From: a virus
Lineage: Duplodnaviria > Heunggongvirae > Uroviricota > Caudoviricetes
Reading direction: 5' to 3' (one strand)
IMG/VR virus record: IMGVR_UViG_2619619134_000014
Length of the DNA stretch: 6,359 nucleotides
Part shown: positions 2,821 through 6,359 of the stretch, in pieces
Layout: each line of letters begins with the position of its first letter
How positions within the stretch are numbered: position 1 is the first letter of the stretch
Notes under the pieces: model-generated
Database searches by the model: none
Told to the model about the DNA's origin: nothing
The model's input: only the letters and a program-made list of their open reading frames with translations
Program-made: the position numbers and the translations under genes

Positions 2821-3309
2821 TCAATCAAGATTGATTCCGAATGGGTAACCAAATGGGATGCTGCTGAAAACACGCAGGTAGAAGCCGTCAAAGGTGGTCG
2901 TTCCGGTGCAATGAAGCGCGCTGCCGTTCAGTGGGGAATCGGTCGGTATCTGTATAACCTTGAGGAAGGTTTCGCACAAACATCTCTCGACAAAAAGCAG
3001 GGATGGCACAGGGCAAAACTCAAGGATGGAACAGGATTTTACTGGCTCCCTCCATCGCTGCCGGGCTGGGCAATCCCAGCATCAGATAACAAACCATCAC
3101 CAGAAAATACCAACCAGAAATCTCCATCGGTTGACTGCGAACAAATCCTGAAAGACTTCAGCGATTATGCAGCGACAGAAACTGACAAGAAAAAACTCAT
3201 CGAGCGTTATCAGCGTGACTGGCAATTAATGGCTGGCAATGAGGATGCGCAGGCTAAATGCGTTCAGGTAATGAACATCAGAGTTAACGAGCTAAAACAG
3301 GCGGCATAA
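2821..3309 (+). pseudogene. erf: C-terminal fragment of a Rad52/Erf-like single-strand annealing protein (ORF from Met 2911 is 132 aa; protein-like frame is open from about 2821)
   Basis: The frame reads ...AVKGGRSGAMKRAAVQWGIGRYLY..., resembling the conserved KRA..FG.G motif region of Rad52/Sak-type annealing proteins. The C-terminus (CEQILKDFSDYAATETDKKKLIERYQRDWQLMAGNEDAQAKCVQVMNIRVNELKQAA) closely resembles the P22 Erf C-terminus as I recall it. The 150 or so residues that should precede the motif are absent, and upstream in-frame sequence before about 2821 is not protein-like. Confidence 0.6.
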
Positions 3310-3825
3310 ATGGCAAGCAGAGGCGTAAATAAGGTGATCATTATTGGTCGCCTTGGGCATGATCCAGAAATCAGATATTCACCATCAGGAACGGCATTTG
3401 CAAACCTTACAGTTGCTACGTCAGAACAATGGCGTGATAAGCAAACTGGAGAGCAAAAGGAGCAGACGGAGTGGCACCGCGTGGTAATGAGCGGGAAACT
3501 GGCAGAAATTGCCAGCGAATATCTGCGAAAAGGCTCTGAGGTTTATCTTGAAGGAAAATTGCGGACAAGAAAATGGCAGGATCAAAGCGGACAGGATAGG
3601 TTCACTACCGAAGTCATCGTGGGCGTTGGTGGAACCATGCAAATGCTTGGTGGCAAGCAAGGAGGCAATGAACAGTCTTCACCTCAGCGAAATAACGGTC
3701 AGCAACAAAGACAGCAATCTCAGCAGCAGGGGAATCACAGCGAACCACCTATGGATTTTGACGACGATATACCCTTTGCACCAGTAACTCTCCCCTTCCC
3801 TCGTCACGCTATTCACGCAATTTAA
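3310..3825 (+). CDS. ssb: single-stranded DNA-binding protein, phage-type, with a 15-residue extension beyond the canonical DDDIPF C-terminus (171 aa)
   Basis: Translation [115 protein letters not shown]... is near-collinear with E. coli SSB (OB fold, Gly/Gln-rich linker, [10 protein letters not shown] tail). The ATG at 3310 directly follows the erf stop (TAAATG). Confidence 0.95.
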
Positions 3826-3838
3826 TCAGGAGAAAATC

Positions 3839-4132
3839 ATGCCAGCGCCTCTGTATGGTGCGGACGACGCGCGCCGCTGTTCCGGCAATTCCGTATCAGA
3901 GGTGCTGGATAAATTCAGAAAAAACTACGATCGGATAATGTCGCTACCGCAGGAAACGAAAGAGGAAAAGGAATTTCGCCATTGTATATGGCTTGCAGAG
4001 AAAGAAGAACGCGAGCGGATTTACCAGACATCAATCCGACCATTCCGCAAAGCCACATATACCCACTTCCCTGAAATTGACCCGCGCCTGCGTAATTATC
4101 GATCACGCTATGGCGCTATCAGTAATGACTGA
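3839..4132 (+). CDS. hypothetical small phage protein (97 aa); possibly Abc2-like anti-RecBCD, unverified
   Basis: ORF with AGGAG 6 nt upstream of ATG 3839. Translation [97 protein letters not shown]. Its size and position downstream of the recombination genes are reminiscent of P22 abc2, but I cannot confirm sequence identity from memory. Confidence 0.6.
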
Positions 4133-4142
4133 GGAATTTACC

Positions 4143-4310
4143 ATGAGAGGACTTGCATACAATCCCGGCATTCTTCCGGCAGAAATGATTATTCGCCAAC
4201 GCGTAAAGCCAATGCCATCGAGAGAGGAATTGCTTAAAAGGAAGAGTTTCGGTTCTGTTAATGACAACAAATATCTGAATGCGATGTGGCGTAAAGGAGG
4301 CAAGCAGTGA
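4143..4310 (+). CDS. hypothetical small basic protein (55 aa)
   Basis: Internal ATG 4143 of track ORF 3993..4310, chosen because GAGGA lies 7 nt upstream and it starts just after the stop of the preceding gene. Translation [55 protein letters not shown]. Its stop overlaps the next gene's GTG start. Confidence 0.5.
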
Positions 4311-4606
4311 GTGTATGTCTTATTGATAAACGTCGACGTGGGCAACAAATACCATCTGTTGGAATGCCGAATCACACATGGTTTTGCGTACTTGATATCG
4401 ATGGTATGGATGCGTTGGTTGACACTCGTCATTACTGCGATACCGCAACAGCTACTCCGGCGAAAGCAAAGAAAATGGCTGCTCTGATAGAAAACTGGAC
4501 TCCACCTGATGGTTGGTGCAATGGGAATGATCGAGATTGGCATGAAAAAATGAAGGGCTATATCTGCGATTTCTTACGTAAATGCAACGGCTTCAGGGTG
4601 ATGTGA
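4307..4606 (+). CDS. hypothetical phage protein (99 aa, GTG start)
   Basis: AAAGGAGG lies 6 nt upstream of GTG 4307, which overlaps the upstream stop (GTGA). Translation [99 protein letters not shown]. No family recognised. Confidence 0.5.
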
Positions 4607-4607
4607 T

Positions 4608-5216
4608 ATGACCAAAATTAACTATCAGGCGCTGCGTGAAAAGGCAGAGAAAGCAACGAGTGGTGTGTGGTCGCTCGAATATGGAGAGGAGAGATTTGAT
4701 GCTGGTGATGCGCTAATTCATCGTGAAGTTGTTGGATATCTTCCCATTTGCAGAATTGAAGGAGCGCATCCTGAAAGCGGTTTCGATGAAGATTTCCAAA
4801 TGGAACAGCAGGCCAATGCTGAATTCATCGCCGCAGCCAATCCGGCTACCGTCTTGGCGCTGCTTGGCGAGCTGGAAGCAGCAAAAAAGCGCATAGCAGA
4901 ACTGGAAGCCGAACCTGTAAGCCAAACTTGCAAGTTGAACGAGCCATCGGGCAACTCTCCGGTAACTCCGGATGGTTGGGTTATAGTGCCGAAGAAACTA
5001 ACCGCTGAGAACGGCGCTAAGGGTGTGCTATCCGGTGAATTTTCAGAAACTACGTTTATAAGCTGCCCGGAATGCTTTGGTGATGATGATTGCGAAACTT
5101 GTGACGGCAGCGGGAGAATCGAAATCAAGGTTCCAGTCAGTTGGACAACTATCAAAACTATTTGGGCTAAAGGGTGTGAGTACTTTTCAATAGTAGCACC
5201 GCAGCAAGATGGGTGA
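4608..5216 (+). CDS. ead/Ea22-like protein with a C-terminal double-CxxC (CxxCxGxG-like) zinc-ribbon motif (202 aa)
   Basis: The N-terminal region (MTKINYQALREKAEKATSGVWSLEY ... ANAEFIAAANPATVLALLGELEAAKKRIAELEAEP) resembles the conserved N-terminus and coiled coil of lambdoid ead/Ea22-like proteins as I recall them. The C-terminus has CPECFGDDDCETCDGSGRIE. The start at 4608 follows the upstream stop by 1 nt. Confidence 0.55.
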   Translation: MTKINYQALREKAEKATSGVWSLEYGEERFDAGDALIHREVVGYLPICRIEGAHPESGFDEDFQMEQQANAEFIAAANPATVLALLGELEAAKKRIAELEAEPVSQTCKLNEPSGNSPVTPDGWVIVPKKLTAENGAKGVLSGEFSETTFISCPECFGDDDCETCDGSGRIEIKVPVSWTTIKTIWAKGCEYFSIVAPQQDG

Positions 5217-5303
5217 TGAAAACAAGTATTTATAACTTAAAAGCATTAAAAAATCGCTTATAGATCAAAAGAAATCTACGTCAAATATTACTATATTTCA
5301 ATG

Positions 5304-5312
5304 TGTTATAAT
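5304..5312 (+). promoter_or_regulatory. putative sigma70 extended -10 promoter element (TGtTATAAT) in an AT-rich intergenic region
   Basis: TGTTATAAT at 5304..5312 is a perfect -10 hexamer with the TGn extension, about 30 nt upstream of ATG 5343. No convincing -35 is present, consistent with an extended -10 promoter. The surrounding 5217..5340 is visibly AT-rich. Confidence 0.4.
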
Positions 5313-5342
5313 TACCCCGTACATAAAATGGGGGGACACAAA

Positions 5343-5585
5343 ATGTTCAAACGCTGCATCACCAAGTGTGGAAGCACACCTGACATCCAAGCTTTTATTA
5401 ATGAAGATGGTAAGCTTGTTGTTGAGAGGAGTGGTCCTTTTATTAGCAAACAACTTATCATTACCTCTCCAGCGGAGATGGCCGGGGAATGGATAGTTTC
5501 TGAACCAGAGGAGTTGCACATCCCGCTTCCTTATGGCCCTCAGGGACTGATTTATAACCGTTATGTTCAGAAGGAGGCGGGTTGA
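5343..5585 (+). CDS. hypothetical small protein (80 aa), moron-like
   Basis: Internal ATG of track ORF 5301..5585, with a G-rich SD-like GGGGGG about 7 nt upstream. Translation MFKRCITKCGSTPDIQAFINEDGKLVVERSGPFISKQLIITSPAEMAGEWIVSEPEELHIPLPYGPQGLIYNRYVQKEAG. No family recognised. Confidence 0.5.
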   Translation: MFKRCITKCGSTPDIQAFINEDGKLVVERSGPFISKQLIITSPAEMAGEWIVSEPEELHIPLPYGPQGLIYNRYVQKEAG

Positions 5586-5661
5586 CAATGTCAGGCATAA
5601 CATCGCCGAGAAATCGAAAGAAAAACAGAACAAGGTAAACGTTGACCTTGCAGCATCAGGC

Positions 5662-5844
5662 ATGGAGTACAGAGAGCGCCTTAACATACCTGTTATCACT
5701 GAGCAGGTATCATGAGAGCAACCTGAGCACTCACGCGAGTATTTCATGGAGCGCATCAGATACTATCGCGAGCAGTCGTTAAACATGCCCAAGGGAAGCA
5801 ACCCATGGTATATCGATATGGATGAACAGAACGCCAAGAAGTAA
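5662..5844 (+). pseudogene. small ORF interrupted by an in-frame TGA at 5713..5715 (about 60 codons if read through); candidate decayed gene
   Basis: Manual translation of one frame gives MEYRERLNIPVITEQVS-stop-EQPEHSREYFMERIRYYREQSLNMPKGSNPWYIDMDEQNAKK-stop. The same frame is open back to 5551. A second frame carries AAGGAGG (5571-5577) followed by ATG 5588 encoding only 16 basic residues (MSGITSPRNRKKNRTR). An intrinsic terminator follows. Confidence 0.35.
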
Positions 5845-5864
5845 ACGCAATTTGAACGAATGCG

Positions 5865-5890
5865 AACCCGCCGAGTGCGGGTTTTCTTTT
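5865..5890 (+). terminator. putative Rho-independent terminator
   Basis: AACCCGC (5865-5871), loop CGAGT, GCGGGTT (5877-5883), followed by TTTCTTTT. This is a 7-bp GC-rich stem with a T-rich tail, 20 nt after the TAA at 5842-5844. Confidence 0.6.
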
Positions 5891-5933
5891 ATCTGAACTC
5901 GCTACGGCTAGTTTTGTTTTATGGAGATGATAA

Positions 5934-6101
5934 ATGCACTTCCGAGTCACAGGTGAATGGAATGGAGAACCATTCAACAGAGTTATCGAAGCGGAGAACA
6001 TCAACGACTGCTATGACCACTGGATGATATGGGCGCAGATAGCGCATGCAGACGTAACCAATATTCGAATTGAAGAACTGAAAGAACACCAAGCCGCCTG
6101 A
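5934..6101 (+). CDS. hypothetical small protein (55 aa)
   Basis: Below the ORF-track size cutoff; found manually. GGAG lies 7 nt upstream of ATG 5934. Translation MHFRVTGEWNGEPFNRVIEAENINDCYDHWMIWAQIAHADVTNIRIEELKEHQAA. It is flanked by intrinsic terminators on both sides. Confidence 0.55.
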   Translation: MHFRVTGEWNGEPFNRVIEAENINDCYDHWMIWAQIAHADVTNIRIEELKEHQAA

Positions 6102-6114
6102 TGGCGGTTTTTTA
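6093..6114 (+). terminator. putative Rho-independent terminator overlapping the stop codon of the 55-aa gene
   Basis: GCCGCC (6093-6098), loop TGAT, GGCGG (6103-6107), followed by TTTTTTATT. The TGA stop (6099-6101) lies in the loop. Confidence 0.6.
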
Positions 6115-6158
6115 TTGCCTGATTTGCAGGTTCGATTCCCTATTCGGAGATAGCACTC

Positions 6159-6359
6159 ATGCAACACGAACTACAACCTGATTCACTGGTTGATTTGAAA
6201 TTCATCATGGCTGATACTGGCTTCGGTAAGACCTTCATCTATGACCGGATTAAGTCCGGCGACCTGCCAAAAGCCAAAGTTATCCACGGGCGAGCAAGAT
6301 GGTTATATCGTGACCATTGTGAATTCAAAAATAAGCTCTTAAGCCGCGCCAATGGGTAA
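6159..6359 (+). CDS. alpA: AlpA-family phage regulatory protein / excisionase-like DNA-binding protein (66 aa)
   Basis: Translation MQHELQPDSLVDLKFIMADTGFGKTFIYDRIKSGDLPKAKVIHGRARWLYRDHCEFKNKLLSRANG fits the AlpA/Vis-type helix-turn-helix pattern (..TG.S..TIY..I..G.FP.P.K.G.R...W.). GGAG lies 9 nt upstream of the ATG. Confidence 0.72.
   Translation: MQHELQPDSLVDLKFIMADTGFGKTFIYDRIKSGDLPKAKVIHGRARWLYRDHCEFKNKLLSRANG

Follow-up and report, generated by a model that had tools for sequence, protein, structure and literature searches.

The prophage gene orf80 and its upstream region: a probable accessory cassette with a putative extended −10 promoter in lambdoid prophages of Enterobacterales

Introduction

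Small accessory genes of prophages are hard to spot from sequence and are mostly without known function. Accessory loci in general are hard to call from DNA alone (PMC7067206). The known prophage morons include bor and lom of lambda and the morons of HK97 and HK022 (Juhala 2000, Cumby 2012, both as cited in PMC7067206). The gene described here, orf80, resembles these morons: it is an extra gene in a variable lambdoid slot, it has a promoter of its own (here a predicted one), and it has spread horizontally among unrelated backbones. It differs from them in that it has no terminator of its own and that the base composition of its ORF, though not of its AT-rich upstream region, is close to that of the neighbours.

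Sigma-70 promoters of the extended −10 (TGn) type work without a −35 hexamer. The predicted promoter of orf80 resembles this type, having TG at −15/−14 and a perfect TATAAT with no −35 match. Unlike plain extended −10 promoters, it is accompanied by a conserved non-sigma box between −45 and −34, and a DNA-binding factor may therefore exert further control. The locus can also be compared with IS10 and IS50, in which transcripts that enter from outside are silenced by fold-back inhibition. As in those elements, the 5′ arm of a hairpin masking the Shine–Dalgarno (SD) sequence of orf80 lies at or just upstream of its own predicted start, so that only transcripts coming from outside would be silenced. 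In contrast to IS10 and IS50, the orf80 hairpin exists in silico only, is predicted in two of six lineages, and has a short stem and marginal statistics.

The gene ea8.5 is, to our knowledge, a gene of the lambda pL operon with no described promoter of its own, and we take it to fill the lambda slot between the ea22-type and orf55-type genes. orf80 occupies the same slot, between an ea22-type gene and a small orf55-type gene upstream of xis, but has no sequence similarity to ea8.5. Finally, the downstream neighbour of orf80 (not orf80 itself) resembles Hot of phage P1 and HolE of E. coli (PF06440, phrog_1105). Unlike Hot and HolE, this neighbour carries a TGA stop in the analysed DNA and in most other copies.

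Results and Discussion

Genomic Setting

The window, i.e., the whole stretch of 6,359 nucleotides that was analysed, belongs to an E. coli lambdoid prophage that has undergone rearrangement. Positions 4894–6359 are 100% identical to the genome of E. coli strain LR-27, where they lie between intS and torI-dsdC in a KplE1/CPS-53-type prophage. On the + strand, the gene order is a recT fragment, ssb, abc2 (anti-RecBCD), a DUF7739 gene and an Ead/Ea22-like gene (4608–5216). The orf80 cassette follows, and 3′ of it there are a theta-like pseudogene, a lambda orf55-like gene (phrog_676) and torI. The coordinates of the features are given in Table 1.

Upstream of 2820, genes of the nin region are found on the minus strand (NinG-like, 495–1106; NinB-like, 1806–2216; and others). 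They abut a truncated recT (2911–3309) at about 2750–2910, and an IS1 insA gene occupies positions 1–276. With the nin genes inverted and IS1 upstream, the early-left genes have no normal early-left promoter region beside them.

It should be noted that the gene at 4608–5216 is itself a mosaic of an Ead/Ea22 N-terminal domain and a Cys-rich C-terminal domain, the latter sometimes being named 'DnaJ' in RefSeq. Its C-terminal part (from about 4950) travels with the orf80–theta block, and in other genomes the same part stands behind DUF550, DUF551 or pyrophosphohydrolase-domain N-termini.

Table 1. Features of the orf80 locus, numbered by position in the window.
Feature	Position	Strand	Basis
Putative regulatory AT-rich gap, from the Ea22-like gene to orf80	5217..5342	+	base composition
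Inverted repeat TAGAT-N8-ATCTA, possible operator		5261..5278		sequence; function putative
Leftward promoter-like site TTGAAA-17-TAGATT, over the conserved blocks	5273..5301	−	promoter scanner
Conserved box ATCTACGTCAAA	5274..5285	+	CTACGTC.AA invariant in six lineages
Conserved TTTCAATG, then predicted extended −10 TGTTATAAT (5304–5312)	5296..5312	+	T.TG.TAT..T invariant in six lineages
Predicted hairpin CCCCGU/AUGGGG over part of the ribosome-binding site	5315..5333	+	ViennaRNA
Predicted transcription start	5319 (±2 nt)	+	usual 7-nt distance after the −10 hexamer
SD-like GGGGGGA, 7 nt before the ATG	5330..5336	+	sequence
orf80 CDS, 80 aa, phrog_9613	5343..5585	+	homology searches, dN/dS, AlphaFold model
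Theta (HolE/Hot)-like pseudogene, TGA at 5713–5715, overlapping the end of orf80	5563..5844	+	RefSeq 'DNA polymerase III subunit theta, internal stop'
Intrinsic terminator-like hairpin and T run, first terminator 3′ of the promoter	5864..5884	+	terminator prediction

The orf80 Gene and Its Protein

orf80 is a real gene. Checked in relatives, as the first-pass annotation of this DNA had proposed, the ORF proved to be kept under purifying selection: between the window and the 70%-identical form of lineage L035, dN/dS was 0.11 (pS 0.68), and across all pairs where it was measurable the ratio was 0.11–0.56. In distant pairs the synonymous sites were saturated, with pN only 0.27–0.42.

The protein matched phrog_9613 over its full length (E = 2.6e-50, residues 1–80 on profile positions 3–82 of 82). 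This is its only family match, and the family carries no function annotation. Scans against Pfam, NCBIfam and PADLOC gave no match (for the PADLOC defence profiles, none at E ≤ 0.1), which agrees with the earlier statement that the 80-aa protein belongs to no recognised family. Relatives were sought among 5.8 billion proteins with a word index and, exhaustively with HMMER, among 1.84 billion representatives. The only ones obtained were near-identical E. coli proteins together with broken versions of them, one form with 70% identity (P0005) and four with 45–52% identity (P0011, P0012 (Pectobacterium carotovorum), P0013 and P0015). A tblastn search of 50,697 phage records with orf80 gave no match, and no confirmed relative came from a profile search of genome contigs with the protein alignment. 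The family is tiny and was seen only in E. coli, Pectobacterium and a few other prophages.

The start codon was placed at 5343, because all homologues begin at an aligned 'MF..C' and a diverged copy has a stop codon in the upstream extension. The longer frame of 94 aa from ATG 5301 was rejected: its extension is unconserved and is closed by that stop. Many database entries nevertheless use the 94-aa reading (e.g., P0001, with 278 members), and its ATG falls inside the predicted promoter. Two entries, P0007 and P0009, are chimeras in which an unrelated N-terminus is joined to the C-terminal half of orf80; in P0009 this N-terminus is the start of an orf55-like protein. Such chimeras suggest that parts of the module have been deleted or recombined in some strains.

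The homologues have 74–80 aa, a pI of 4.9–6.1 and no hydrophobic or transmembrane segment. An AlphaFold model based on an alignment of eight sequences was all beta with six strands (pLDDT 76, pTM 0.66), while an earlier one from a four-sequence alignment was unusable (pLDDT 42). No informative structural match was found for the predicted fold. A PilZ/split beta-barrel domain, considered on the basis of fold matches, was rejected, as the c-di-GMP binding motifs RxxxR and (D/N)xSxxG are absent. The product of orf80 would be a soluble, mildly acidic 9-kDa all-beta protein. It most likely binds another protein and not DNA; our best guess, with low confidence, is a protein-binding modulator.

The Upstream Region

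The abrupt switch to an AT-rich intergenic region, described in the first-pass annotation, is evident from the base composition: GC is 0.28 in the gap at 5217–5342, compared with 0.45 in orf80 and 0.47 in the surrounding 6 kb. Members of the orf80 family share a long AT-rich gap upstream, of 170–420 nt.

The perfect extended −10 element reported earlier within this gap is indeed present, and it is the sole occurrence of TGNTATAAT in the window. Taken alone, the motif is not beyond chance: 0.21 occurrences are expected per window, and at least one was found in 36 of 200 shuffles (18%). No −35 hexamer was found upstream of it, the best candidates matching at most two of six positions, and for this reason a two-hexamer scanner missed the site. 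The extended −10 is conserved as TGnTATnnT in six lineages.

These lineages are the window, L035 (an E. coli Rac-like prophage), L036 (Pectobacterium), L042, L043 and L039. Their proteins are only 45–70% identical, and synonymous sites between them are largely saturated. Alignment of their upstream regions revealed two invariant blocks, CTACGTC.AA and T.TG.TAT..T. In all six, TGnTATnnT is kept 27–42 nt before the ATG, and T.TG.TAT..T lies 24–25 nt from the CTACGTC box. The invariant positions are those critical for an extended −10 (TG at −15/−14, T at −12, A at −11 and T at −7); variation is seen at −9 and −8, where changes are tolerated. Mean identity is 74% in the 42-nt core versus 43% in the leader. 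Likewise, among 34 E. coli copies nearly all variation lies in the leader, not in the core, and the extended −10 is intact in 33 of them; the exception, L033, has CG in place of TG. Since the element is conserved in related loci, it is more than a chance motif, and the view that orf80 may have its own promoter gains comparative support.

The window has a single copy of the box, which spans about −45 to −34 relative to the predicted start. Pectobacterium-type loci have two direct copies of it, 22 bp apart. It lies partly inside the inverted repeat TAGAT-N8-ATCTA, which is perfect in the window and in three Pectobacterium-type lineages, has one mismatch in L035 and is absent from L039. A pattern scan of viral contigs for the box combined with the extended −10 gave many matches. 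Among the matches listed, all those that share the intervening sequence precede an orf80 homologue; the remaining ones lie inside unrelated genes and look like chance. As this architecture was found only before the orf80 family among the matches listed, the control region and the gene appear to travel as a unit.

We know of no convincing match between the box and the sites of common E. coli regulators (IHF, CRP, NarL, MetJ, OxyR, MarA and others). A TorI or IntS site was considered and rejected, because the box is also found in prophages with unrelated excisionases and integrases. The factor that would bind it is more likely a host factor than orf80 itself, given that the protein is acidic and its model all beta.

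The Leader and the Ribosome-Binding Site

According to the first-pass annotation, a CCCC run in the leader could pair with the GGGG of the SD-like run and occlude the ribosome-binding site. The G run is found at 5330–5335 as described (in several E. coli copies, a G5334A variant turns it into GGGGAG), but the CCCC run lies at 5315–5318, one base away from the position 5314–5317 given there. In the ViennaRNA prediction, CCCCGU (5315–5320) pairs with AUGGGG (5328–5333). The 48-nt region folds with −11.7 kcal/mol (z = −1.8), a stability that 11 of 200 shuffles also reach. The CCCC arm corresponds to −4 to −1 of the predicted start and the whole 5′ arm to −4 to +2. Consequently, the cassette's own transcript would lack the CCCC arm, and the full stem would form only in read-through RNA.

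In the window, the mean probability that the SD region is unpaired was 0.04 for read-through RNA versus 0.25 for RNA begun at the predicted start. The corresponding values for L035, whose hairpin differs in sequence, were 0.16 and 0.45. No such difference was seen in the three Pectobacterium-type lineages. In L039, the SD was accessible (0.65–0.82) in RNA begun at the −10 or at the predicted start, and the value was 0.25 in a long read-through construct. The masking hairpin is thus not conserved outside the two E. coli lineages. Of the proposed occlusion, what stands is the prediction for the window and its closest diverged copy; it does not extend to the four other lineages or, as predicted, to the cassette's own transcript. 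Silencing by the hairpin is a weak, lineage-specific possibility.

Distribution and the Variable Slot

The 369-bp segment 5217–5585 was present at full length and at least 95% identity in 88 of 5426 complete E. coli genomes (1.6%). The E. coli copies are associated with two integration modules, IntS/TorI and a lambda-like int adjoining ybhC. The block that moves among E. coli prophages is usually 4950–5936, which takes in the C-terminal domain of the upstream gene and the theta-like gene. The diverged forms (L003/L035) share only 5229 to about 5552 with the window: homology sets in just 3′ of the stop codon of the preceding gene and runs out about 10 codons short of the stop of orf80. The C-terminal tail of orf80 is different in each context.

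The cassette lies after the replication genes in the Rac-like prophage (L003/L035), in the nin region in L039, before xis/torI in the window, and just before xis-int in Pectobacterium. In L037, it is found where the upstream genes point the opposite way. This supports the gene and its AT-rich upstream region being one unit, placed differently in different lambdoid prophages. An IS element is located about 0.5 kb upstream of the cassette in L035.

No empty site was seen. In strain E50, an ASCH-domain gene and a gene for a 266-aa protein lie between the gene with the Ea22-like C-terminal domain and orf55-torI; this slot is tightly packed and has no AT-rich gap, so that E50 represents a replacement in a variable slot. 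Lambda itself matches the window only at 5879–5950 (lambda 29269–29340).

The moron-like nature of the unit, suggested in the first-pass annotation, is thus upheld in part. A conserved predicted promoter of its own and the variable slot speak for it, whereas the absence of its own terminator does not. The base composition points both ways, as the upstream region is AT-rich and the ORF is close to its surroundings. Judging from these sequence features, orf80 is probably an independently expressed accessory ("moron-like") gene, which is an ordinary kind of element.

Downstream Genes

A theta homologue lies 3′ of orf80 in both E. coli lineages (PF06440 in L035, phrog_1105 in L030). Its reading frame is interrupted by TGA in the window and most copies at a position where relatives have CGA. 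In a few diverged copies the gene is intact (L030, 93 aa) or broken elsewhere. Relative to L035, one base is missing after the original ATG (5588) in the E. coli copies examined, as a result of which the frame opens at ATG 5563, inside orf80.

In the other lineages the neighbours are unrelated, being either a 158-aa phrog_1636 protein or an HNH_2 protein, so the link with theta may be a feature of the lineage and not a clue to function. In Pectobacterium-type prophages, the phrog_1636 protein always lies 3′ of orf80, followed by xis-int (L036 6284–6760, L042 3273–3749, L043 1163–1639). In L035, an AT-rich gene for a 181-aa protein with hydrophobic segments and no family match is located 3′ of the theta-like gene (5515–6060). 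A common functional theme was sought among the phrog_1636, HNH_2 and 181-aa membrane proteins, and none was found.

No terminator was predicted directly after orf80 in the window, L035, L036 or L039, nor between the orf80 homologue and xis-int in the scan of L036. Transcription would therefore run into the next gene and, in Pectobacterium, toward xis and int.

A search of window 4900–6359 against Rfam gave no RNA family apart from a sub-threshold match to the STnc130 sRNA on the minus strand (6082–6209; 24 bits versus a gathering score of 55, E 0.58). This match overlaps the terminator 3′ of the orf55-like gene and the start of torI, and is probably due to chance.

Proposed Cassette and Alternative Explanations

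Based on the above results, we suggest that orf80 and about 115 nt upstream of it are probably a self-contained accessory cassette of Enterobacterales lambdoid prophages, with an extended −10 promoter of its own. orf80 would be transcribed rightward from the sigma-70 promoter TGTTATAAT without a −35, whose place would be taken by the box, in a position expected for the binding of a class II activator or a repressor. With the box in this place, the promoter is probably under the control of a factor that E. coli and Pectobacterium share. A short leader of about 24 nt would precede orf80 in the transcript, which would run into the downstream gene. In E. coli, this is the theta/Hot-like gene (decayed in the window), after which the terminator at 5864–5884 would be reached. 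Expression from this promoter may take place in the lysogen.

A more elaborate version of the cassette is quite unlikely. It would be a three-part module in which a host factor, shared by E. coli and Pectobacterium, switches the promoter through the CTACGTC box, the fold-back hairpin guards against read-through, and orf80 acts as a new kind of inhibitor, directed at a protein of the host or of a rival phage, or as an anti-defence or exclusion factor. The target of such an inhibitor could belong to DNA replication or repair, because both E. coli lineages show the linkage to theta/Hot and because ssb, anti-RecBCD and recombination genes lie nearby.

The gene is rare, and nothing so far points to a striking function; the value of the locus lies in a well-defined candidate, not in surprise. 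The six diverged copies turn the upstream region into a precise, testable candidate for a promoter and an operator. In E. coli as in Pectobacterium, about 40 conserved bases accompany this one gene family, so that their regulatory role should be easy to test and a factor binding them easy to fish out.

Other explanations of the conserved upstream region were weighed against the cassette. It is unlikely that orf80 is a delayed-early gene of the pL operon, like ea8.5 of lambda. The gap would then be a mosaic joint, and the conserved block would have a role other than transcription initiation, e.g., as a site for a nucleoid protein or as a linker that helps the module to move by recombination. 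This would suit the co-orientation of all genes from 2911 to 5216, and no terminator was predicted between these early-left genes and orf80, so that read-through transcription could also express it. The gap also falls exactly at a mosaic boundary, with homology to L035 starting at 5229. However, the positions that are invariant 27–42 nt before the ATG are those that an extended −10 needs (TG, T, A, T...T), and the cassette also occurs where the upstream genes face the other way (L037) and in rearranged prophages, including that of the window. Autoregulation, in which orf80 would bind DNA at its own promoter, would account for box and gene always travelling together; the restriction of the box and promoter architecture to the orf80 family, among the matches listed, and the lack of any other gene common to all contexts are consistent with it. 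Such a role is nonetheless very doubtful for an acidic to neutral protein (pI 4.9–6.1) that has no helix-turn-helix or ribbon-helix-helix, has a predicted all-beta fold and matches no regulator family.

The leader, too, could be the element of interest, as a regulatory RNA whose CCCC/GGGG hairpin occludes the ribosome-binding site and opens with temperature or a signal or, in a variant, silences only read-through RNA. The hairpin of the window, the hairpin of different sequence over the SD in L035, and the lower SD accessibility of read-through RNA in both (0.04 versus 0.25 and 0.16 versus 0.45) are in line with this. We consider it very unlikely, as the z-scores do not go beyond −1.8 and −1.9, the effect is absent from the three Pectobacterium-type lineages, L039 is inconsistent, and the 5′ arm sits at −4 to +2 of the predicted start. 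Furthermore, the leader is the most variable part among the E. coli copies and has no compensatory changes. Equally improbable is a leftward promoter (−35 TTGAAA at 5301–5296, −10 TAGATT at 5278–5273) whose RNA would be antisense to the end of the early-left operon; it could act by itself or as one of a back-to-back pair with the rightward promoter. The scanner reported the leftward site in the window and a corresponding one in L035, and the TAG of its −10 is invariant. On the other hand, its −35 degenerates to ATGAAG, ATTAAA or ATGGAA, the key last T of its −10 is lost in L039 (TAGAAA), and both hexamers are less well kept than the rightward TGnTATnnT. The invariance also reaches into CGTC, which a −10 does not need, the second box copy of Pectobacterium has no partner hexamer, and neither a conserved leftward ORF nor an Rfam RNA family was found.

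Two further promoter-like arrangements were seen in the region. A leftward promoter with TTGACG as its −35 was rejected, since its −10 is not conserved in the other lineages. In L039, a second perfect TGTTATAAT (2540–2560) immediately precedes the box and is 45 nt upstream of the conserved TGATATATT. This could be another promoter, and transcription from it would start at the box.
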